The position numbers and the translations under genes are program-made. Below, piece after piece: positions 1 to 50,598 of a stretch of DNA of 64,000 bases; the stretch's first letter is position 1, and every line of letters starts with the position of its first letter. The notes under the pieces are model-generated. The model ran no database searches, was not told the DNA's origin, and saw only the letters and a list, made by a program, of their open reading frames with translations. The DNA is from Eremomyces bilateralis CBS 781.70 (lineage: Eukaryota), in assembly GCA_010015585.1 (NCBI GenBank), contig ML975155.1; one strand, 5' to 3'.

Positions 1-2149
1 CTTCGAAACTGTCGCAGTCAAGAACCAGATCAAAGGGAGACTCTTTCAAAAGGGACAATTGGGCAAATGTACACGATGACTGCAGTAGCATGCCGAAGTC
101 GTAAGCGGAACACATCAAATGTATACGCTAAGCAGTTGGGATTATATATGATCTCAAGTGGGACAAAGCGGCAGGTTGTAGATACAGCTGCTGGTCTTGG
201 GCTCACCGAAACATACCAAAGTATTAATGAGGAGGTTTCAGGTATGGCGCTCAAAGCGAAGGCAGGTTGATTTATATCTTAAGTTAGATCTTTTCTTCTA
301 ACTTCTTAATTAGAACCGCCTCCCAATGCTGGCCAAAAAGCCAAAGACAGTTCTTGTTTATGATAACTTCAACTTCAAAGATACTGTGCGCGAGCAGACA
401 ATTGGTTCAACCCATATCATGCGGAATCTGACAACATGCCTGTTGGTTGAGAACCCATATTTGCCTGATGAAGGTTTATCCCAATCAAGTTTCGATCCCA
501 CCCAACTTCTCTCCTTTAAAGATATCTGCAAAGCCGATGGTTTAAAGCATGATGAAAAAAAGCAGAGTATAGACATTCACTTAGTCTACGAGGCCCTACA
601 ACACGTCCATTCTACAAGTATTGACTTGGTTTTCCAATCACAGCCGTCTACTGTCCCTGCTTACCCAGAGATCAACCGTCTATATGCAGGTGGGAATGCA
701 ACAAACATTCATCATCTTCGAGCTGCCCCTTTTGATGAAGGAACAATCCAAGGAACTTACGGAGTTCATGAAGATATTTGGATCCGACAGTTGGGTTTCC
801 AATCCCAGCCACCAAGCGAAGACTTCACAAACCGTCTCTGGTTGGTATTTGGAGATCAGAAAACAGCCCAACATATCCGTACTCTGAAGGAGGCACAGAA
901 GAATGCAATTCTACCTTTTGACAGACGGAGATGGATGTTAGGTCCATCTGGACTATTCCATGTCCTTATGAATCTAATACTAACGATCGTCCGTATCCAT
1001 TTTGATACGGAGCCTACACTACCGTCGGATACAAAGCCTTCACTACCAACGGATGCGAAGCCTTCGGTGCCATCAGATGCAACGCTTCTATCGGATATCA
1101 TCTACTGGGATCGAAAAGGATATACTCGAGAATCCCCAAAGTTCTACATGTTTGACCCTCTGCTCAGGCAATCATTTTATGCTCGTGTCTTAATGCTATG
1201 GTACCATGTTCTTACGAGACGAGGACATATCCAAAAGGCATTCCTTGAAGATACCAGTCCAAGTTCAAAACTGGATCTAATTATCCAGAACCTAGAGCTA
1301 GAAGAACTTATCTCTACAATGAAAGAGGTCTGTACACTGGCATTCTCTCCAGAGGCATGGGACACGACACAATACGGACTTGAATTTCGAAGTCTCTGCC
1401 GGCTTGTCCAGTTGATCAGCATCTTCCTTTCTTTGCGTAAAGCAGTCAAGAATAGCGACATCGGCTGGATTGACCGTTTAATCGATCCACTTGCAGTTAT
1501 CTTCCACGCAACTGGACAGCACAAGTATGGTGATGAAATGCTCCATCTTCGTTGGATATTATCTGAATGCGTTTCAGAGAAGATTCTCCGCGACGCAATA
1601 CTATCATCTAGTCTTGTGAATTTGCATGGCAAACCAGGCCAGTTTAAGGCTATTGATCTAGCCCTTGAACACGTTAATTGCGCATACAAGATTGATATGA
1701 AGTTATTAAAGAATTCAACACATAATGCAGACAAAACCTTTGGTAGAGTCGCATTATTAAGTAATGTCTTCTCTAAGATTCGTGGGGCATGGGAGAACTC
1801 ATTTGGTTTTACCCAAAGCGATCGACATACAACCAAAGCTGATCAACGGGATATCTTTAGTCGCGCCCTTCAACTATATCTACGCAGTCCTTTGCTCACT
1901 ATCCAACCTCGCGAAGCTGTTGGTTGGGACGCACCTGATATCTTCCGGATTGGTGCTGAGGTCTTGGAACAAAAGGTCAATTCCTTCAACAATCGGATAC
2001 CAGTCCGCTCTAGTGTCATCCCCCAGACTGATCCTGAGGACCTTAATGAAGAGACGGATTTGAATCCTCATAACTCTGAGATCTCACCAGTAATTACCTA
2101 CTCTGAGGCTTGTGAGGATGGGCTTGTTAAAGATCATGACATTCTTTGA
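1..2149 (+). CDS. DUF6589-type (Academ) DDE transposase, 5'-truncated by window edge, intron 262-313
   Basis: Frame 1 is open from base 1 (GLYMISSGTKRQVVDTAAGLGLTETYQSI) and joins the 607-aa ORF. Motifs LVYDNFNF, DEGTIQG, GDQKT, GLFHVLMN, GQHKYGDE, LVNLHGKPG, DLALEHVN. Confidence 0.75.
1004..1088 (+). repeat. Degenerate 24-bp in-frame tandem repeat (~3.5 units) inside transposase
   Basis: gatacggagcctacactaccgtcg / gatacaaagccttcactaccaacg / gatgcgaagccttcggtgccatca / gatgcaacg = DTEPTLPS DTKPSLPT DAKPSVPS DAT. Confidence 0.85.
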
Positions 2150-2618
2150 CTGCGTTATCGCTCACTTCATCTATACCCCTCGAAGCCCTCCATATCGAAA
2201 TTGCAGTTTAATGGAAGTTATGAAGCATGAATCATCCTCAAATAAATCGTGATATCTGTCGCCTGTGACCTACGTAACTGTCCCCTCCATATACATAACT
2301 ATTCTAATCCCTCTGTCTCTTAGTAAGGCATATCTTAATCTGTAGGCCTTCCTTTTCTAGAAACGGTCCGGGGGTTGAGGTGTGTCTTAGTATAGTATCT
2401 CTACCAATCCTTAGTGTTTTTCAAAGATGATAACATTGCTGGAATTCCCTTATTAAGGGCTACAAGATGATGTATATATTATCATAATTCAATGGGTTCC
2501 TACCCACCCTATTTTCTTTGAAGTTGGTACAAATCTGGAAATAAAAGGATACTATTAGTCTGAAAAGGGCTATCCGAAGTTCTCCCAACCAAAACACTTC
2601 TAAATCTTCTTGTTCTCT

Positions 2619-5420
2619 TTACCACGCTTCTCCCATAGATCCCTCCCTTTGGGCGTCAACTGTACATGAGAAACGAAGACCAGCTCGTTTAGGTGTATTA
2701 GGCCTATCTTGTCTGGTGACCTGTCCTTTCTCCTGGTTTCCAGATACTCCCCTAAGCGGCGTCCGACTTCTCTTGTGTATACCTGAAGAATTGTGAGTAG
2801 TTCGTTTGGTCGTTTGGCTGCGCGACCAGATGTTAACAGGTATAGGGGCTCTGATATCGGAGGAGATCGTAGTCTTATTATCTGTACCAGAATCTAACTT
2901 AACGCTAGATTGTGATACGAACGATGACTCCCCTCTTACGATAAACGAGCTTCCTAATTCCTGCGACCCTTCCGATATCTCCGGCTGTGACGAAAACGAG
3001 GGCCAATGGCGGGGTTTGAACGTTTCCCGATACTCATTAAGCTTCTGAGCAAGTAGCTCGTTATGCATGATAACCCGGAGCCCATCCCTATCGTCTGCTA
3101 ATTGACGACTGCGGACATATTGAGCAACCTTTTCCTCTTTAGGTAAACTGGGATTAGGTATAATACTCGAGTCTTGAGGATTACTCTCTAAGTTTTGAGC
3201 AGTACCCTCTGTAGCCTTTCTGGCCAGTGCCTTGATGTTCCTCTTGCACTTTCGTTCCTCTAGTATCGCGTTATGCTTCGAGCATACCTCTAGAACTATC
3301 CGGACAAGGAATGCCAGCAAAGGATCGAGGAGGGTGTTCTGATATTCCCAGTTTTCGATGTCAAAGAGGGCTGACAATGCCTCCTGATCCGGTATAGGTA
3401 CCGTTGTTGAGTTCTTCACACAGGTATACATAGAAGCAATAGCCCACTGCGCTTCTTGAGGAATGACCACCCCAGCTGGAACTGGAATCATTTGCTGCGC
3501 TCGTGGGAAGATCGATTCTACCTGTTCAAGGCACCATACAACCAATAGATTCAGCGCAATACCTGCCTTAGTCTCCCTGCCAGGTTTGGTAGACTTGAGG
3601 GGGATATCAGGCATTGGTGGCAACTGGAACAATGCTATATTACACTCCTTCCCATTGTAACAGACCTTCTTGTCTGCTCGAATGGGGATAGTATCTGGCT
3701 CGCATTGGTCCTCGTTAAACTCCGCAAGGAATACCTGCCGTCTGCATGGCGCGTTTGCAAGAGAACGGATCGTTATTGGGAGGGTTGCCCTATGCTTGAG
3801 TTCATCAACAGTCCATGTAGGTAGACTATCTGACTTCCCCCTCTTCTTAGACTTTGGGATAGTTGATTGCGAGTTCTCTTGACTAGCGGCTTCGGTATTA
3901 TCAGACTGTTGAGAGCAGTCAGACTCAGCTCCATCGCCTTGCGATAATGGCGATTGTGAATAGGTGGTATTAGGTAACCGGAGTGTATTCCGCCTGCCCT
4001 TTTTCTTCTGAGACAGTGGCTGATTATTACGCGAACTAGGCATTTGAACAGGATCCTGTCCCATTAAGTCGAACGCATAGTATGGCAGGAATATAAAAGC
4101 CATCCCATTGATTGCCTGCTTCACCCGAACAGCCCGACCAACCCGTTGCCAAATATCACCAAGATCGTGGCCGATTGGAAGTCCCCATTGAGCAACCACC
4201 ATAATATCAGGAATGTCCATACCCATTCCAAGAGCAGTAGTTGCAACAACTACTCTAAGGGAAGAGCATGGGGATCTGATCTTATCGTATAGCAAGTCCT
4301 GGTCGTATCGTGAGGTATTCGATGTATATGCACCAACTGCATCCCGAACCATGGCTGGTTCAAACCCTTGAACAAAGAGATACCGCTCTAAGGATGCAGA
4401 GATATTGGCTACCGATTGAAGTCCATCTACAAAGATGATCGTTTTCGGGATTCGCTGGAGGTCGTCTTCCGTCCTACTAGTTGGATGCTCTAATGCATGA
4501 TCAACTAGAAACCATAGCCGTTGGTAAGCCTTGCTCTTTCCTCTCTCAATGGGCAAAATGTTAAGTGAGATATCAGGTCGATCAATTGAGACTCGGATGA
4601 TCTTAAGTGGCAGTTCATGGTGTGTCTCTTCATAGAAACCACCATAATAGATAACAGCCTGTTCTGTGGCCTTGTTCAAAGTGGCAGAACAACCAAACCA
4701 GATGGTATCAGCACGTAAGTACCGACGTAATTCCCTGATCTTGAGATATTCCAACCGGAATTCCTTCCATTGCTCCATAACATGGAGCTCGTCAATTGCA
4801 ACCACACCAATCTTGTTCTTTACGTCAGGGTTTAACAGCAAATCACGAAACTCATCGCTAGCTGCTTGCTCAGGACCCATTAAGATATGGGTATATAACC
4901 CAGCTGCAATCTCCTGTAACAGTTTCGGATTCGTATGCTTGGTCTCCGCTGTAATAAGGCAAGGCCTGGCCTCTGGTAACTGTTCAATCGATCTCTTCTG
5001 CTCCTCCCCAAGCTTGCTTAAAGGAATCAACTGGATGACAATTCTGCCAATAAAGATTGGGATAGCATGGAAGATGATGCTCTTCCCAAAACCAGTCTTA
5101 GCAGAGACAATAGTATCTCCATAGCGAAAAACAATTCGTCGAAGAGCCCGAACCTGGTTGATACGTGGGAGCCGACCACCCAGGAGTCGCTGCAAACCAT
5201 GGAAGATAATATCATGCTGGTATTTGATGTTCTTTCGTATTAGACAGGCCTTTACTAACTCTTGCAGTACCGAGCATAACTCTTTCTCTGGTGTCGTTGC
5301 AATTATGGATATCCGTTCTTCGATCGTTTTCTCGATAGGAGGTGGTTGTACAGAGGCTAAATTTTGGTATAGGGAGGTTTCACGCTGATGGGCGCGGCCT
5401 CGCCGGCGCTTCACTCGCAT
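2619..5420 (-). CDS. RecQ-like superfamily 2 DExH helicase (transposon-encoded)
   Basis: 933-aa ORF with Walker A AKTGFGKS, IPLSKL, AIDELH, CSATL, SIDRPDI, VATTALGMGMDIPDI, QRVGRAVR and CRR...C zinc region. No Sgs1-type N-terminus or HRDC is recognisable. Confidence 0.88.
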   Translation of the reverse strand: MRVKRRRGRAHQRETSLYQNLASVQPPPIEKTIEERISIIATTPEKELCSVLQELVKACLIRKNIKYQHDIIFHGLQRLLGGRLPRINQVRALRRIVFRYGDTIVSAKTGFGKSIIFHAIPIFIGRIVIQLIPLSKLGEEQKRSIEQLPEARPCLITAETKHTNPKLLQEIAAGLYTHILMGPEQAASDEFRDLLLNPDVKNKIGVVAIDELHVMEQWKEFRLEYLKIRELRRYLRADTIWFGCSATLNKATEQAVIYYGGFYEETHHELPLKIIRVSIDRPDISLNILPIERGKSKAYQRLWFLVDHALEHPTSRTEDDLQRIPKTIIFVDGLQSVANISASLERYLFVQGFEPAMVRDAVGAYTSNTSRYDQDLLYDKIRSPCSSLRVVVATTALGMGMDIPDIMVVAQWGLPIGHDLGDIWQRVGRAVRVKQAINGMAFIFLPYYAFDLMGQDPVQMPSSRNNQPLSQKKKGRRNTLRLPNTTYSQSPLSQGDGAESDCSQQSDNTEAASQENSQSTIPKSKKRGKSDSLPTWTVDELKHRATLPITIRSLANAPCRRQVFLAEFNEDQCEPDTIPIRADKKVCYNGKECNIALFQLPPMPDIPLKSTKPGRETKAGIALNLLVVWCLEQVESIFPRAQQMIPVPAGVVIPQEAQWAIASMYTCVKNSTTVPIPDQEALSALFDIENWEYQNTLLDPLLAFLVRIVLEVCSKHNAILEERKCKRNIKALARKATEGTAQNLESNPQDSSIIPNPSLPKEEKVAQYVRSRQLADDRDGLRVIMHNELLAQKLNEYRETFKPRHWPSFSSQPEISEGSQELGSSFIVRGESSFVSQSSVKLDSGTDNKTTISSDIRAPIPVNIWSRSQTTKRTTHNSSGIHKRSRTPLRGVSGNQEKGQVTRQDRPNTPKRAGLRFSCTVDAQREGSMGEAW

Positions 5421-5782
5421 GGAGGCAGATCTGGAGGTTGATCCTCTATACTTGATGACGCGATATGCAGCTTTAAAACTCTAGTTACAGAATGAACAGT
5501 TAGCAATTTGATATTTAAAAGCCATAGGACTCTTTAACTAACTCTTATCTATATTTCATCAACTTCTGGTGCCCACCCAACTTCTCCGTATGATGTTATT
5601 CGCCATCTCGACATTTTACCCAAATCTCATCATCTACGCATCCATACACATTTTGCAAGCGTTTCTCAGACGGTACCCAAGACAGTTGCACCCACGTGAC
5701 TAGTTTGTACGCTAAACATGGGTTTAATCTGGTTACGGTTTAGCTTAACCAGGGTCATGGCTTGGATACCGTCTGAGCCCTA

Positions 5783-5855
5783 GCTGAGATAACTTCATAG
5801 CAACAATTCAATGTTTGCCTCACGATTGGAGATTCCCGACAGTGAGACTCTTACA
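5783..5855 (+). mobile_element. 3' end fragment of an LTR-like repeat (ends ...CTCTTACA)
   Basis: About 60 bp match, in inverted orientation, the copies at 7824-7880 and 42955-43015. Ends in CA like an LTR terminus. Confidence 0.6.
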
Positions 5856-6601
5856 CAAGGAATTAACCCAATTGAGCTCCCTCGACGACTCTGCCCCAGT
5901 TAAGAAGCATAATTTTATAAACATTTATAATAAATCCCGCATTGAAGCTTTGATAAACCATAATATCCGCGCTGGGTTCAGAGGCACCGGAATCTGCCCA
6001 TTCAACCCGCACAAAGTATTAAATAGCACCCAATTAAACGAGAACCATACTATACAACGTTATGTGGCCCCAGAGCCCATATATGATTATATATTTAATA
6101 CACCCAAAGGCCCAAAAGACGTGTATACGGGGAAAAAGTTTGAGGACATGTCTGGACGGGATTTCAGGGGTTTACAGGGGAAATTGGCCAAGGCACTCTC
6201 AAAGAAGAACGTCGAAATCGCAGCACTGAAAGCGCAAGTTGCAAAGCTCGAAAAATCACTGGAAGACATAGGCGGATTGTCTAAGAAAAGGAAAAGAGTC
6301 CAAGTCGACCAAAATGAGCGATTTGCGACGATTGATCAGATTGTTGCTGCGCAAGAAGAAGCAAGACAAGCGGAGCTGAAGGAGGCGAAGAAGAAGCCCA
6401 AATTTGACGCGCAAAAAATTTCGGACGAGCTGCAAAAAGCAGAATTCGAGTCACTTTGCTCACAGTTTCAGATATAATATATAAATTTCAATATTGGTGG
6501 AGTTATTATACAGAATCTATAGTCCTCTGTTGTTGGTGTTGCTGCGTGTGAAGTGGTTACAAATCGGGGTGGTTACAAACCGGGGGTCCTATCTTATAGT
6601 A
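5856..6601 (+). mobile_element. Fot1/pogo (Tc1-mariner) transposon 3' remnant with right TIR
   Basis: KELTQLSSLDDSAPVKKHNFINIY...NIRAGFRGTGICPFNPHKVL...KRVQVDQNERFATIDQI is typical of the Fot1-family transposase C-terminus (stop 6477). The terminal region has a tandem 16-mer GTGGTTACAAAYCGGG x2 (6553-6584) and TA at 6600-6601. Confidence 0.75.
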
Positions 6602-6849
6602 CTAGTGTGAGGGAGAAATCTCACCAGCCGGAGGAAAAATCTCTCGGGGATGAAAAATCCCAAATATGGGAGGAAATATCTCACCAGCCTAATACCCATT
6701 TTACACATCCCTAATCATAACAATTACGGTTCGAGGGCAAAATGTGCTCAATCCAGATTGAGGTGTGAGGAAGAATTGCCTTGGCACGGTGGAGAATCTT
6801 CTCAAATTGACGCATCCAGGTGGCTATAAATAAGGCTGTTCGACGATTG

Positions 6850-6884
6850 ATTATCATCATCATTATCATCATCATTATCATCAT
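6850..6884 (+). repeat. (ATC/ATT)n microsatellite directly upstream of the DJ-1 ATG
   Basis: attatcatcatcattatcatcatcattatcatcat. Confidence 0.9.
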
Positions 6885-7645
6885 GCGGTTCCTAAGTCTT
6901 GCATTGTGTGCGGTGGCAGTTGCACAAGTTCCGGAACCTCCTGTTAACTATGGAATCGTTCTATTCCCTGGCTTTCAGGCGATGGACGTCTTTGGTCCAT
7001 TGGATGTCTTGAACACGTTGTCGATGCGTCAGACATTGAATCTGTACATATTTGCGAACCAGCGTGGGCTGGTGCCAACGAAACATGCGATGGAGGGAGT
7101 AAAATCCAACTTTGGAGAGGCGGTGATGGCCGACTACGCGTTTAATGACACAGAGATTCCAGACCTCGATGTTCTCATCGTTCCTGGAGGTGCTGGGACA
7201 CGAGATTCGCAGACGCAAGCGGAAGTGGCACCGTTCCTTTCGAAGATCTACCCTCAACTCCAATATCTGGTCGCCGTGTGCACCGGATCGGCTCTGGTTG
7301 CTCGAACGGGGATTCTCGATCGTCGACGAGCAACCACCAACAAACTAGCGTGGGAGTGGGCGACATCACAGGGACCAAATGTAAGGTCTTCTAGCTCTGA
7401 TGATTCGTTGCTGACTGAGGAAGGTCGACTGGGTTCCCCGCGCTCGATGGGTTCGAGATGGAGACATCTGGACGGGATCAGGGATCACGGCATCGCTCGA
7501 CACGATTTACGCGTTTGTGGCACATGTGTATGGAGAGCCAACGGCGGCGAACTTGTCCAGGGACTTAGAGTACGTTCGTTGGACCGATGCGGACAACGAT
7601 CCCTTCGGGGATTTCTACAACACAAGCTGGCCGATCGTGGGATAG
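6883..7645 (+). CDS. Secreted DJ-1/PfpI family protein (isocyanide hydratase-like), intron 7381-7423
   Basis: Signal peptide MRFLSLALCAVAVA; LFPGFQAMDVFGPLD, LIVPGGAGTR, VCTGS, ATTNK. After the intron: VDWVPRARWVRDGDIWTGSGITA...DPFGDFYNTSWPIVG*. Confidence 0.88.
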
Positions 7646-7823
7646 ACGTGGTGGAGCAAATGACTATATGTCCCAAGATAGCAGTCGAATTGGAGCGTGT
7701 CATGAGCATCCTGTATCGAAATTCCCATAGTGTATGCGTGCGGAAAGCGAGTCGCTCGGAGGAGGATGCGTCGGGAGGAAATGGGTCGTTGTGAAATCGT
7801 CATCCGGTTTAGTTAATGTCGAG

Positions 7824-7880
7824 TGTAAGGGTCTCACTGTTGGGAATCCCCAATCGTGAGGCAAACGTAGAATTGTTGCT
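7824..7880 (-). repeat. LTR-end fragment, copy 2
   Basis: tgtaagggtctcactgttgggaatccccaatcgtgaggcaaacgtagaattgttgct, 3 mismatches vs 42955-43011. Confidence 0.8.
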
Positions 7881-8022
7881 CAGTTGGTTTCTACTACCAC
7901 GTAGCATCCCTTTCACTGCCCACTACCGGTTTAGATATATCAATGTAGATAATCGCCGTCAACATCCTCTGATTATTCATGGGAGCATAGATGTTCCAGC
8001 AACTATCTTAACTGCAATGATA

Positions 8023-9152
8023 TTACAATTTTGCTTTTGACTCAGGAGTGACTTCAACCATCAACTTTCCTGTATTCATGCCCTTATAGAGGTCTATAAG
8101 TGCCTGCTCCGCTTCTTTGAGTCCACCCTTCACGATGGTTTCTTTCCGCTTGATCTTTCCTTCCGAAATCCACTGGGCAAGCTCACGGAGAGCCTGGGGA
8201 TATTGATCCTGATAGTCAAAAACGATGAAGCCTTGCATCTTAATCCGCATGCTCACGATGACTAGATAGTTCTTTGGGCCTTTCTGGACCGGCTCATTGT
8301 ACTGACTGATACCGCCACACATAACGAAACGAGCATGGGGCTTCGCTCTTGCTAGGGCCATATCCAGAATCTCTCCTCCGACGTTGTCGAAGTAGATGTC
8401 AATCAGACCTTTGGTGGCAGCACGGAACATCTGGGCAAAGTTGGGGGCTTTGTAATTGAGAGCGAAGTCGAATCCAAGATCATCGACCAACCAGGAGCAT
8501 TTCGCATCGGTTCCAGCAAGGCCAAGGACTGTGCAACCCTTCAACTTCGCGATCTGGCCTACGACACTTCCAGTTGCGCCAGCTGCGCCAGAAACAACGA
8601 CGAAGTCACCAGGTTTGGGTTGACCAATATCGATCAACCCAAAGTATGCGGTCAAACCCGTGATTCCTAGACGATCAGTATGATGATAATCAGCGGCGGT
8701 TGGTGACATACCGAGCACCCCGAGGGCATCCGTCAACTTGCCATTCTGTGGGATCTCAACCTTTTCCAGGTGCTTCTCTTTCACAATGGCAAGTTCAGTC
8801 CATCCCGCCATGGTCGACACATTGGTACCAATAGGGAAGGATGGCGATTTCGAGGCCTTGACCACGCCGATTCCAGAACCACGCATGACCTCGCCGATTT
8901 GAACGGGCGGAACATACGAGCGGGCGTCTGAAGGAGGTCAGTTGGTGCTTGCAATGGACTTTGGTACGTCAAACCGTTCAACCATCCTCTCATGGCTGGG
9001 TCAAGCCCTAGATAGATGGTCTGAACCAGGACTTCCCCATCCTTGAGATCCGACTCTTTTGGCACCGGATGCGTCTTGGTCACAAACGTTTCCCCAGCGA
9101 CAATCCTGGATTTAGGCCGCTTTGCAAGGTGGACTGCTGTGTATGTCGACAT
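8023..9152 (-). CDS. NADP-dependent alkenal/prostaglandin reductase (MDR family), 2 introns, C-terminal PTS1 AKL
   Basis: LGLDPAMRGWL, TGLTAYFGL, VVSGAAGATGS, YFDNVGG, CGGISQYN, NTGKL; ends SKAKL*. Confidence 0.93.
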
Positions 9153-11348: not shown

Positions 11349-11505
11349 TGTCTAGGAAAAGAGATCTAATAGCTAGTAGCCAGATAAAGATAACTTAAGT
11401 ATATAGGAGAAGACTGAAGAGTCCTGATTAGGCCTAGCCCAGGGGTAGGGGGCAGTGAAAGGAATGTTAGGTGGCAGTAGAAACCAACAGGGGCATCTTG
11501 CGACA
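11349..11505. mobile_element. Possible degenerate solo LTR
   Basis: TGTC...GACA ends, TA-rich interior with TATATA; no target-site duplication found. Confidence 0.25.
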
Positions 11506-13186: not shown

Positions 13187-13871
13187 TCAACAATTACGCC
13201 AGTCCAAGTACAGGAACTGGCGGAAATTATTGGATTGTTTGTCGTTCGTCATCAACGCGTTCCCAGAACCACTCACAGCCACCGATGAGCGAACATTGAG
13301 CAAGACCTCTCCACCGCACGGAGAATAAATACCCATCGGCTCCGTGTTAAAGGCGGTGTAATCTTTATTGAGAGGTCCCCGGAAGACCGTTTTATGCTCG
13401 TTCTAGCGTCGATTAGCGGAATGTTCAAAAATTGGTGGAGGCATGATCTCGTACCTGGTTCTGTTCGCCTGAGAAATAGTAGAGAGTACTGAGAGTGCCC
13501 GTAGTCCCGGGATCCAATGCGACATAACCAAGGTATCCGGTTTGCCAGATACTAAAGCTGTATCCAGCAGGAATGTCGAGAGCGATATTCAGTTGGCAGA
13601 ATTTGCGCCTCTCGGTAGTCGGGGCATCACCCCCAGTGTAAGCAACAAAATCATCGAAGATGAGAGGAATGATGCCTTGATCATCGGACAATTGCCAATC
13701 GAGGGAGCCTTGTGGACAACCGTTTCCGCCATAGGTGATGGATCGAATCCGAACGGCACCACGCGGAGGAGGAGCCGATCGCGTAGCATGCGTGATACGG
13801 AAATCAGAAGGAAGCGCAGAGACTAAAGACAGTCCGCTCGCTAGGAGTGAAATGATGGAGGAAGAACGCAT
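13187..13871 (-). CDS. Secreted DUF4360 family protein, intron 13403-13454
   Basis: Signal peptide MRSSSIISLLASGLSLVSA; YGGNGCPQGS, FDDFVA, RKFCQLNI, YYFSG; second exon YSPCG...LDWRNC*. Confidence 0.85.
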
Positions 13872-41912: not shown

Positions 41913-42954
41913 CCTTCAATTGGGAATATAAACTTGGATTGCAATCTGTCGTCATGGGTTCGCGATCAGGACTGTTCATCAAAAGCACCAGAGGGGCCCT
42001 CTGCTGCTGTATCAGTTCAATAGCCACGCAAATGCTGGGCAAGCGATGAAAAACGATTGAAAAGGCCACATCCAGAACGCGACGGGCACGACTTTAACTA
42101 CCTTATCCCCCAAACTCGCACATGCCATTGACCAATGGGAATATTCTCAAATTAACTCACCTGAGCAAGTTTGTCGTGGCGTTACTTCCTAGAAAGCTTG
42201 TTTATACAACACCGTACAAGGACTTGCAGGCCAAGACAAATGTACTACCCGATGACCGTCTTGGCCACCGCACGAGTCACCGCGTGAAGTTATCATCGAA
42301 ACCGTTCCAAGATCTTTCGTGCCCTAGAAGTGCCCCGAATGCAAGCCACCAGAGTATCATCCGACCGCTTCCCACACGCTCCTAACGTGGCATGGTGACA
42401 TTTCGGGGACGCCCTCCTTCGGGCAACTCGATAACGAACTGGGTGTCGGTGAATTCTAGGAGCGTTAGCAAATTGGACGAGTCCTTCAAATGGGATTCCT
42501 AACAAACGATCTGGATCGTCCTGGTGATGGCCTTCTCCATCCAGAGAGGGACGTCTCCGTGTGCGGCCGTAAGCTACTCGCTGAAACTGCGATTGCGGGC
42601 CGTCCTCTAGTCTACAGTCTACGCCCTTCTGCCGTCAACAGAGGAACAGGGAGTACCTACTAACGAAGCTCAGAACAGGTGATCACCGTAGGCCTTAACG
42701 AGGTAAAAACTTAGTGCATGAAGTGGTAATTACTAATAACACGCCTAAAGACATTATGAATAAGTGAAGGTCCTTTAAAAGTCTGAGGAAACGAAATATT
42801 GTAAATACATAATTGGCGGTGATAAACCGTCAGCCAGAAAACATCGAATTCGTTCTTCGATCACCTCAAGAAGTCGAAACCGTTAAGAGAGAGGCCCCAT
42901 AGACCAATATCCATAAACGATCTCTTCGAGACGTCAAACCGATTACAAGAGAAG

Positions 42955-43070
42955 TGTAAGGGTCTCACTGTAGGGAATCTCCAATCATGAGGCAAACGTA
43001 GAATTGTTGCTATGAGGGAGGGATCTATCTAAAGGTGTGCAAGGCGTTATATGTTTGGTGCTGCCCTTCA
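42955..43070 (-). mobile_element. Solo LTR-like remnant, copy 3
   Basis: Shares ~60 bp with 5795-5855 and 7824-7880; tgtaaggg...cccttca ends; TATAA on minus strand; no TSD seen. Confidence 0.55.
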
Positions 43071-49654: not shown

Positions 49655-50598
49655 CTTGGTAGGATTGGCTGCAATAGGTTTCACTGAATTGAGTGGACGG
49701 TATAGAGGTTTAAGACGATATGATGAGACTAGAAGAGAGTGTTAAAGTTGGATGATTAGAGTAAGAGAGGAAGTGTAGAGAAAAGTGGAATGCGGAGGAA
49801 AGTTGAGCAAGCAGTGAGGAGAAAAGGCAGCAGCCAGATGACAACGTGCTATAGTGACATCTAGCTATTGCTATAAGTTATAGCTCTGGCCTGACGAAGT
49901 CTGGACATGTGAATTGATTGAGCGAATGCCAACAGCTATTGCGGGACCTCGATTGAAGTCCTGTCGATATAATATATCTCATCTGAGCTCCTGGGCTCCA
50001 GGGTCAAAAACATAGATCTCACCAATTAAACCAGACTGGGAGTGGGAAAGCCGCAGTTTGATTCTTACCCTGCCATGGGTTCAAGCTGTAATTATGCTGA
50101 CTTTGGCCGAAAACGACTGACGGCACTGGTGGAATTCGCATGTGGGGGAGGTGAGAAGTGATACTGATAGAGCTCAGATGGCGGCGTCTCAACAAGGCGA
50201 TTTCACCCCACGGCGGTCACTCTATGCTTTCAGTACCTGTGAAGGCTTGAGTGTGGCCAAACTCGACTTTACCGAAGAAATTCTTTAACTGCTTGGTATG
50301 CTTGAGGACGCATACTTTTCTTCCGTTGACAACCTTGGAGCCTTCCACGCAGTCTGTGACATTCTTCGCAGCATGTGTATCGTTTGACTACAACCATCAG
50401 AACCCAGTCGGACTGTATATAGAATCATACAGTTCATAGTAATTAGATACTTCCAAAACCCTAGGACTTCTCCTGTACTAACACACTAAGGTATACCGGG
50501 GGCGGTTGGAACCAGATCTGTCTAGGATATTGCTCTGGGATTTGTCATTGCAAAGTGGAGCAATAAATTCAGTAGACAATCGTATGGAATTTGAACCG

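Follow-up and report, generated by a model that had tools for sequence, protein, structure and literature searches.

The first 5,792 nucleotides of a 64,000-nucleotide stretch from the ascomycete Eremomyces bilateralis CBS 781.70 (GenBank assembly GCA_010015585.1, contig ML975155.1; the whole stretch is hereafter called the window) most probably represent the right 5.8 kb of an autonomous-type DNA transposon of the AcademH lineage. Its full length is estimated at ~6.7 kb, and the left ~0.9 kb would lie upstream of the window. Positions 1–5792 contain most of a gene for a putative DDE-type transposase with a DUF6589 domain and, on the opposite strand, a gene for a RecQ-like helicase of superfamily 2 (SF2). 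Judged from its sequence and that of its relatives, the element is mobile and present in several copies, and not a pair of host genes. Its membership in AcademH appears well supported, since the catalytic contexts of the transposase agree by eye with the RNase H profile of the Academ superfamily.

Two convergent genes in a multi-copy element

The transposase gene is encoded on the + strand and is cut by the window start. Its upstream exon (1..261) corresponds to residues 184–270 of P0101, the transposase of another copy in the same genome (tblastn, 98.9% identity), and frame 1 of this strand is stop-free from window base 1 to 270 in the list of open reading frames (ORFs). Because these residues fall on 1–261 and residues 271–872 of P0101 on 314–2146 (tblastn, 94.3% identity), we regard the 52 nt between them (262..313, + strand, GC..AG) as an intron. 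Indeed, P0101 reads ...EEVSGMALKAK–NRLPMLAKK... uninterrupted across this position, and the intron is skipped in a contig of the run X3 that splices 259 to 312 with two ambiguous bases, an exact fit to 262–313. Note that X3 is an RNA-type run by inference and not by record; we took it as RNA-derived because it shows the neighbouring host dehydrogenase gene with its two CT..AC introns removed.

The main exon (314..2149, + strand, with a TGA stop at 2147–2149) is a frame of 611 codons, and the ORF starting with ATG within it (326–2149) codes for 607 amino acids (aa). It matches the Pfam domain DUF6589 with an E-value of 4.4e-62 and carries the candidate catalytic triad: the D of YDN at 362–364, the D of GDQ at 854–856 and the E of LEH at 1667–1669, corresponding to D287, D451 and E714 of P0101. 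In an alignment of 39 transposase sequences, no variation was seen at the second D or at the E, and of the 28 sequences that extend over the first D, 27 have it. The Pfam model spans P0101 residues 351–767 and so misses the first catalytic Asp at residue 287. The predicted transposase is therefore a protein of ~872 aa whose core would consist of DUF6589 and ~65 residues upstream of the domain. As the window starts inside this gene, ~183 codons and the whole left end of the element fall outside it.

The second gene (2619..5420, − strand) codes for a stop-free RecQ-like SF2 helicase of 933 aa with DEAD (5.8e-13) and Helicase_C (5e-10) domains in Pfam. It shows a Walker A motif GFGKS (5093–5079), a DELH motif (4793–4782) and, between 3746 and 3642, cysteines of the RecQ zinc-binding type. 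The 37 PDB sequences that the helicase matched (E up to 0.001) all belong to the RecQ family (WRN, RECQL4, bacterial RecQ, RECQL5, RECQL1 and BLM), and a profile of 23 family sequences matched WRN at 2e-34 and bacterial RecQ at 1.7e-32. The invariant cysteines C559...C587 C588 ..C593 align collinearly to the zinc-binding subdomain of WRN (residues 389–428), a match that is weak when taken alone (E ~1), and no RQC or HRDC domain was found by Pfam. From these matches, the protein is predicted to consist of two RecA-like domains and a RecQ zinc-binding subdomain, followed by a lineage-specific C-terminal region. In a large protein collection, 29 element-type helicases (E at most 8e-42) were separated by a clear gap from the next matches, which started at 5e-13. 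The two genes are convergent (tail-to-tail) and 469 nt apart; the intergenic spacer (2150..2618) differs between copies, and DNA contigs of other copies skip 2170–2395 and 2201–2372.

The initial annotation had reported a stop-free DUF6589 protein with a D(YDN)-D(GDQ)-E(LEH) triad, tail-to-tail with a stop-free 933-aa RecQ-like helicase, as an apparently intact AcademH-like pair in a young or active family that might be mistaken for host genes. The helicase, the motifs, the arrangement and the mis-annotation were all confirmed. Public records label the transposase as "DUF6589 domain-containing" or "hypothetical" and the helicase as "P-loop NTPase" or "DNA 3'-5' helicase". The 314–2149 frame is open as described, but the gene runs off the window start and is not whole in the window, so that the initial "apparently intact" lacks support here. 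The public gene models are shorter still: that of the window copy (P0102, 348 aa) treats ~260 codons, the GDQ motif among them, as intron, and that of a neighbouring copy (P0001, 617 aa) begins inside the gene, so the annotation hides a protein of ~870 aa.

In protein clusters formed at 90% identity, members from E. bilateralis CBS 781.70 lie on at least five contigs. The 1,301,577-bp contig carries the window's own copy with its helicase and the 348-aa transposase model. A 248,240-bp contig encodes P0001 and P0103, which have consecutive accessions and are 99.35% (transposase, 611 aa) and 99.78% (helicase, 916 aa) identical to the window proteins. The full-length 872-aa transposase P0101 is found on a 309,810-bp contig together with a helicase fragment (94.3% and 93.0%, respectively), two further helicase fragments on a 1,515,116-bp contig (88.8% and 91.2%), and one on a 396,544-bp contig (90.3%). 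The truncated helicases P0105 and P0107, although encoded on different contigs, break at the same point after ...HVMEQ and continue with the same frame-shifted tail. This break corresponds to a DNA joint 3518->4768 (3519–4767 skipped, 1249 nt, with CA filled in) that is present in one contig each of the runs X1, X2 and X3. As the deletion derivative stands at two loci, it must have been copied after the deletion arose.

The read data agree with a multi-copy element. In X1, the summed contig depth over 1–5700 was 572–3099 vs 173.5 in the unique flank, a measure that is not a copy number and was used only as agreement. Of 318 X1 contigs on window positions 1–9000, 143 were at least 99% alike, 72 were 95–99%, 85 were 90–95% and 18 were lower. 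No marks of repeat-induced point mutation (RIP) were detected in the window copy at the usual index thresholds (TpA/ApT 0.79, (CpA+TpG)/(ApC+GpT) 1.25), the values being similar to those of adjacent host DNA. One X3 contig covering 312–855 was identical to the window. Near-identical copies, transcripts and the lack of RIP marks support the view of a young family with transcription in this genome, as initially supposed.

Further X3 contigs skip 2837–2907, 4522–4576 and 5218–5267, each starting with GT and ending with AG on the + strand, as expected for spliced transcripts antisense to the helicase gene. Such transcripts may arise where transcription of the transposase gene reads through, and convergent transcription could be a source for RNA silencing.

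These antisense transcripts bear on an unlikely but serious possibility, namely that the family is real and this particular copy dead (5'-truncated or silenced), with the transcripts stemming from other copies. Neither the first 183 codons nor the left end falls within the window, RNA contigs are not assignable to one copy when the copies are 99% alike, and spliced + strand transcripts do run through the helicase gene in antisense. However, everything visible in the window copy is open and full length, the RNA contig 312–855 is identical to this copy, and RIP marks are absent.

To what extent the two genes belong together can be seen in relatives. A scan of metagenome contigs with the 39-sequence transposase alignment gave 28 loci, which are not all independent, since six pairs among them overlap at 99–100% identity. 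These loci were searched for the helicase by tblastn with the window protein and 28 relatives as queries, and helicase sequence was found in 12 of the 28. In ten of them (L001, L002, L005, L006, L007, L009, L011, L013, L026 and L028) it is downstream of the transposase and on the opposite strand, as in the window, L028 retaining only a C-terminal remnant; in L017 and L019 it is upstream and on the same strand. The latter two represent a more distant family (transposase ~29% identical) with a different gene order and the same pairing. Ten loci have at least 3 kb of sequence beyond the transposase match on its downstream side; nine of them have the helicase and one, L023, does not, and the 16 loci without a helicase have 0–2.7 kb downstream, L023 excepted. 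FastTree trees of transposase and helicase for six elements (window, L001, L002, L006, L007 and L011) had the same unrooted topology, and the clades (L001,L002) and (L006,L011) received a support of 0.999–1.0 in both. The congruence argues that the helicase is a long-standing core gene and was not captured repeatedly. The co-occurrence of both genes in other copies, on which the proposed transposase–helicase pair depended, is thus borne out.

The transposase intron may have a history of its own in these loci. The tblastn match to the transposase breaks at residue ~270, the position of the window intron, in L001, L002, L008, L011, L012 and L020, and is unbroken there in L007, L016 and L021. This suggests that the intron is old and was gained or lost within the transposon gene.

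Relation to Academ and other helicase-bearing transposons

The assignment to Academ was made with the consensus of the RNase_H_Academ hidden Markov model (HMM) (PMC5751038, Supplementary File S1), of which seven of ~20 parts were compared by eye; here and below, PMC numbers refer to the passages of these papers that were covered. Around the first catalytic residue, HMM states 2–7 read f-D-N-w-D-i, with near-invariant D and N, and the window protein Y-D-N-F-N-F. States 186–192 (v-v-l-t-g-d-q) correspond to W-L-V-F-G-D-Q, and states 450–454 (D-e-a-l-E, with near-invariant D and E) to D-L-A-L-E. The span between the first D and the E is 451 states in the HMM vs 427 residues in the window protein, and an invariant G follows ~130 residues after the first D in both (HMM state 137, transposase G417). 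All three catalytic contexts therefore agree in order and spacing, by eye and without a score.

The composition of the element points in the same direction. AcademH elements likewise code for a transposase of the DDE type and, separately, for an SF2 (DEAD/Helicase_C) helicase, have inverted ends, are present in low copy in fungi and have transposase relatives in animals, some of them with PHD fingers; we know of no difference between them and the window element. The families described by Kojima in 2020 reportedly include helicase-bearing Academ elements of fungi and animals, with one animal sublineage carrying a PHD finger in the transposase, and are said to produce target site duplications (TSDs) of 9–10 bp. 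In the transposase family studied here, the profile matched 3188 clusters (50% identity) at E ≤0.001 and 481 at E ≤1e-30. Named DUF6589 relatives come from Dothideomycetes, Sordariomycetes, a lichen-associated lineage and others. Structure neighbours in the ESM Atlas are DUF6589 clusters from Basidiomycota, Mucoromycota, Cnidaria and Mollusca, and 14% of the members of the Mollusca cluster have PHD fingers. A TSD of 9 or 10 bp has been reported for AcademH (PMC10045372). The sister lineage AcademX shares the transposase superfamily, as judged by the common HMM, but has an XPG-type nuclease linked to its transposase and a TSD of 3–4 bp (PMC10045372), whereas the window element has no nuclease domain and carries a helicase gene instead. 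In four full-length transposases, Pfam found DUF6589 only, with no XPG-type nuclease domain.

Several observations weigh against this reading of the element. The Academ match was made by eye, and the RNase H-like fold of the transposase is presumed from its motifs. As the window begins past the first 183 codons and the left end, the copy may be truncated. No direct repeat of 9–10 bp was found at the ends of L001 or L002, the contigs with both ends, although contigs of a multi-copy repeat may be chimeric. Finally, 36 displayed coding variants between copies, a small and selected sample, comprise 14 synonymous and 22 other changes and give no clear indication of purifying selection.

The element could alternatively be a DDE transposon that bears a helicase and belongs to a DUF6589 superfamily of its own, resembling Academ only in short motifs, which we consider doubtful. 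Academ membership does rest on three motif contexts compared by eye, on taxon range and on gene content, and profile searches with the transposase returned no PDB relative (0 matches at E up to 10) and no fused form of greater length (weak evidence); an Atlas search with DUF6589 left out likewise gave no usable named match. Against it, all three contexts match Academ in order and spacing, as does the invariant G. The helicase association, the occurrence in fungi and animals and the PHD-bearing animal members also fit AcademH as it is reported to be. Besides Kolobok, no other helicase-bearing DDE lineage is named in the portions of the literature covered.

In these, two DDE lineages with a RecQ-like or DEAD-box helicase are named, AcademH (PMC10799480) and KolobokH (PMC9587614), and an assignment to the latter is very improbable. 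KolobokH comprises DNA transposons known only from fungi that encode an accessory RecQ helicase, and the helicase of a rhodophyte Kolobok is on the complementary strand (PMC9587614). The window helicase is RecQ-like as well; unlike that of KolobokH, it is a separate gene on the opposite strand. The DDE cores of KolobokH, however, read FDCSWSH, IDGD, DLKH and NEAFNR (PMC9587614, Additional file 3), unlike YDNFNF, GDQ and DLALEH in the window. Kolobok also shares a C/DxxH signature with hAT, P, MuDR and Dada (PMC9587614). This signature is absent here: in the 39-sequence alignment, none of the four conserved His columns in the relevant interval (0/4) has a C or D three residues before. With different DDE cores and no C/DxxH signature, Kolobok identity was rejected. 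The suffixes DiVe and RIr of KolobokH names we take to denote Glomeromycota species, which the passage itself does not say.

The cellular RecQ helicases (WRN, RecQ, RECQL4/5/1 and BLM) align with the window helicase in the helicase core and the zinc-binding subdomain, but with an identity of only ~25–30%, and the window protein has a disordered insert of ~100 aa before the zinc subdomain. Unlike helicases of the Sgs1/BLM/WRN type, it has no RQC or HRDC match, is multi-copy and is borne by a transposon. Helitrons are also eukaryotic transposons that encode their own helicase. In these, an HUH nuclease is fused to a Pif1-type helicase of superfamily 1, and inverted ends are lacking. The AcademH-like element of the window differs in being of the DDE type, with a separate gene for a RecQ-type SF2 helicase and with inverted repeat ends.

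The presence of such an element in an ascomycete is not new. AcademH is described as low copy in Basidiomycota, Ascomycota and Mucoromycota (PMC10799480), Academ is listed as "low copy, in most taxa" (PMC5751038, Table 1), and DNA/Academ was reported for a single Peyronellaea pinodella isolate (PMC9410150, where Dothideomycetes are mentioned too). As Academ has already been reported in ascomycetes, ascomycete AcademH is a known kind, and the initial view that it is rarely described was overstated. New appears to be the equation of DUF6589 with the Academ transposase core, which the domain looks like. No link between DUF6589 and Academ was found in the literature search, the supplements of PMC10799480 contain no DUF6589, PF20231 or Academ rows, and the one DUF6589 passage found does not call it a transposase. 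The one paper found that names DUF6589 suggests it as a possible virulence factor or epigenetic regulator. Pfam labels it as a domain of unknown function; if it is the Academ transposase core, gene models of this kind should be annotated as transposons, and "DNA helicase" genes next to them should not be taken for repair genes of the host.

Ends of the element and the role of the helicase

The right end of the element can be placed exactly at 5792, where three lines of sequence comparison meet. First, L001 (4025–8260) and L013 (1–4236) match at 100% identity along 4236 nt and diverge immediately thereafter, and the last bases common to both, read inward, are TTATCTCAG. Second, this terminal 9-mer (5784..5792, − strand, in the window) recurs at seven ends: L001 right, L013 right, L002 left and right, L008 left, L020 left and window 5792–5784. 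Variants of the tip are TTATCATAG at L001 left and TTATCTTAG at L028 right. The pattern TTATC[TA][CT]AG has 14 matches in the 28 loci and one in window positions 1–9000; ten of these 15 can be read as ends (L001 left twice, in tandem), and the other five (L003, L007, L014, L020 at 1869 and L028 at 3499) are unexplained or due to chance. Third, the window is matched from 5793 on by contigs of a short repeat that is unrelated and very abundant, and these contigs have their own conserved sequence leftward (four contigs each in X1 and X2, agreement 0.97–0.99). The second repeat copy of the window (43016–43050, − strand) has the same leftward continuation and no TAA at the junction. Therefore, the terminal ...GATAA is sequence of the element and not a TA or TTAA target.

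The end thus lies ten bases past 5782, where the initial annotation had placed a TAG-type terminus (...CCCTA). The bases that it proposed as TSD, GCTGAGATA[A] (also GCTGAGATAA, 5783–5792), proved to be the element's own conserved tip. The terminus motif on which this was based has one exact match in the window and one match with two mismatches at 50168, which we ascribe to chance (2/100 shuffles gave at least two matches). If the family makes a TSD of 9–10 bp, the duplicated target at this copy would be CTTCATAGC(A), 5793–5801/2. The 62-nt repeat at 5793–5856 was ruled out as a part of the element end, since the point of divergence of L001 and L013 is at the 9-mer and, to the left, the repeat's other copies are followed by sequences of their own.

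The right terminal region (5421..5792, 372 nt, upstream of the helicase start) was aligned to both ends of L001 and L002. The five ends have in common the TTATCTCAG tip, a second CTCAG box 2–7 nt inward and an inverted copy, CCGTCTGAG, 70–160 nt further in, and both ends of L002 and of L001 share tip and boxes as terminal inverted repeats, the left end of L001 being degenerate. In the window, the inner CTCAGACGG box (5665..5684, + strand) is the inward arm of an inverted repeat within the end, and the outer CCGTCTGAG box (5758..5777, + strand), which is also present in the ends of L001, L002, L008 and L020, is its outward arm; they pair at 18/20 positions across a loop of 73 nt. In L008 and L011, the inner box has the sequence GGGTCTGAG or GCGTCTGAG. 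The corresponding inverted repeats match at 14/15 positions in L008 left, at 10/12 in both L002 ends and at 9/10 (ungapped) in L001 right. Beyond a common core of 7–9 nt, the positions vary between families yet stay complementary: the outer box ends in ...ACGGTA in the window and in ...ACCCTC in L008, and each pairs with its own inner box. This end anatomy, with the TTATCTCAG tip and three CTCAG boxes per end, appears to be newly described here: neither the terminal motif nor the box architecture was found in the literature search, though the primary AcademH paper may hold both.

Two readings of the boxes can be offered. They may be two opposite copies of a family-specific transposase binding site, or they may form an intra-strand stem maintained by selection. 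When folded as single-stranded DNA, the window end was more stable than its shuffled versions (z −3.89, 0/200 shuffles as good) and so was L001 right (z −2.35, 5/200), and L002 left was no better than shuffles (z −0.08, 86/200). In the L006/L008/L011 group, the space between the boxes holds arrays of short direct repeats whose core is CCAATCA.

In the model that we propose, the transposase would bind the CTCAG boxes and cut at the TTATCTCAG tips with its DDE (RNase H-like) active site, and cut-and-paste transposition would, by family precedent, leave a target duplication of 9–10 bp. Our best guess, held with somewhat less than even confidence, is that the helicase makes synapsis possible by opening or remodelling the DNA, either at the ends or at the target; alternatively, it might serve in repair or copying of the donor gap. 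A more specific proposal, which we put forward as speculative and improbable, is that the helicase unwinds the duplex end so that a stem-loop forms, and that the transposase then recognises or cuts this structured single-stranded end. It is based on the inverted repeat of 10–20 bp at each end, anchored on CTCAGAC/GTCTGAG with a loop of 70–160 nt; if true, it would mean a helicase-dependent end recognition undescribed for DDE cut-and-paste elements. We know of no function assigned to the RecQ-type helicase of cut-and-paste transposons, and why some of them carry one is a question on which this family bears. It is compact, transcribed and multi-copy, its copies being near-identical, and it occurs in a culture-collection fungus. 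Across its copies, one full-length transposase ORF, two full-length helicase ORFs and the exact right end are available as material for excision or transposition assays with and without the helicase.

The idea that these are two host genes, an unknown gene and next to it a RecQ helicase of the cellular or telomere-linked kind, could appeal to the public labels of ordinary proteins and to the RecQ-like helicase genes known near chromosome ends in fungi, but it retains practically no probability and is refuted by copy number and ends: copies are found on at least five contigs with a protein identity of 89–99.8% to the window among the cluster members compared, the same internal deletion occurs on two contigs, the inverted ends are conserved and in two metagenome contigs the 100% identity stops exactly at the terminal 9-mer, the window copy is nested in other repeats, the helicase has no RQC or HRDC match, and its clade of 29 proteins is set apart from the next matches.

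Two of the related loci have peculiar structures. L011 (294–13517) is a 13-kb relative with ~7 kb between transposase and helicase; it contains low-complexity ORFs and arrays of GAACTTCTG..CCAATCA repeats. Its 45-nt inverted repeats at 294–338 and 13473–13517 correspond to the inner box, which places the true tips further out. In L002, tandem units of ~95 nt (core CACGTGATCT..GCAAAGATTGG) adjoin the left tip at 1–140, and the same units form an insert of ~808 nt between the genes (3293–4100) with 81-nt arms that are 98% complementary. This insert looks like a rider resembling a miniature inverted-repeat transposable element (MITE).

Flanking repeats and other observations

The flank at 5793..5856, outside the element, is highly repeated, with other copies at 7812–7880 and, inverted, at 42953–43015; in the DNA runs, the bin 5701–6000 had a depth ~57 times that of the unique flank. 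The repeat is ~62 nt long, has an internal palindrome (CTCAC..TTGGG..CCCAA..GTGAG) and a common outer boundary ...CTTACAC, and is probably the end of another, different transposon or MITE. The helicase-bearing element appears to have inserted within one copy of it. The adjoining stretch 5857–6597 is also repeated (~9 times the unique depth) and contains a 109-aa ORF at 6148–6477 as well as a peptide resembling the C-terminus of pogo/Fot1-type transposases; a Pfam search of 5857–6150 for the suspected pogo-type tail gave no match. Since other copies of this stretch continue leftward past 5857, three repeats are nested here.

The run X4, which is labelled as a different organism, contains pieces of the element and the neighbouring repeats (window 1–6600) at a depth of 3–5. 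Some of these pieces are identical over 178–194 nt and have the same flanking loose ends as in the main runs. They could be due to carry-over between samples, a close relative or horizontal transfer.

Further downstream, a 45-nt inverted repeat (7883–7927 and 11444–11488, 89% complementary) flanks the host gene for a zinc-type dehydrogenase. The stretch between 7883 and 11488 had single-copy depth over the part covered (up to 9000).

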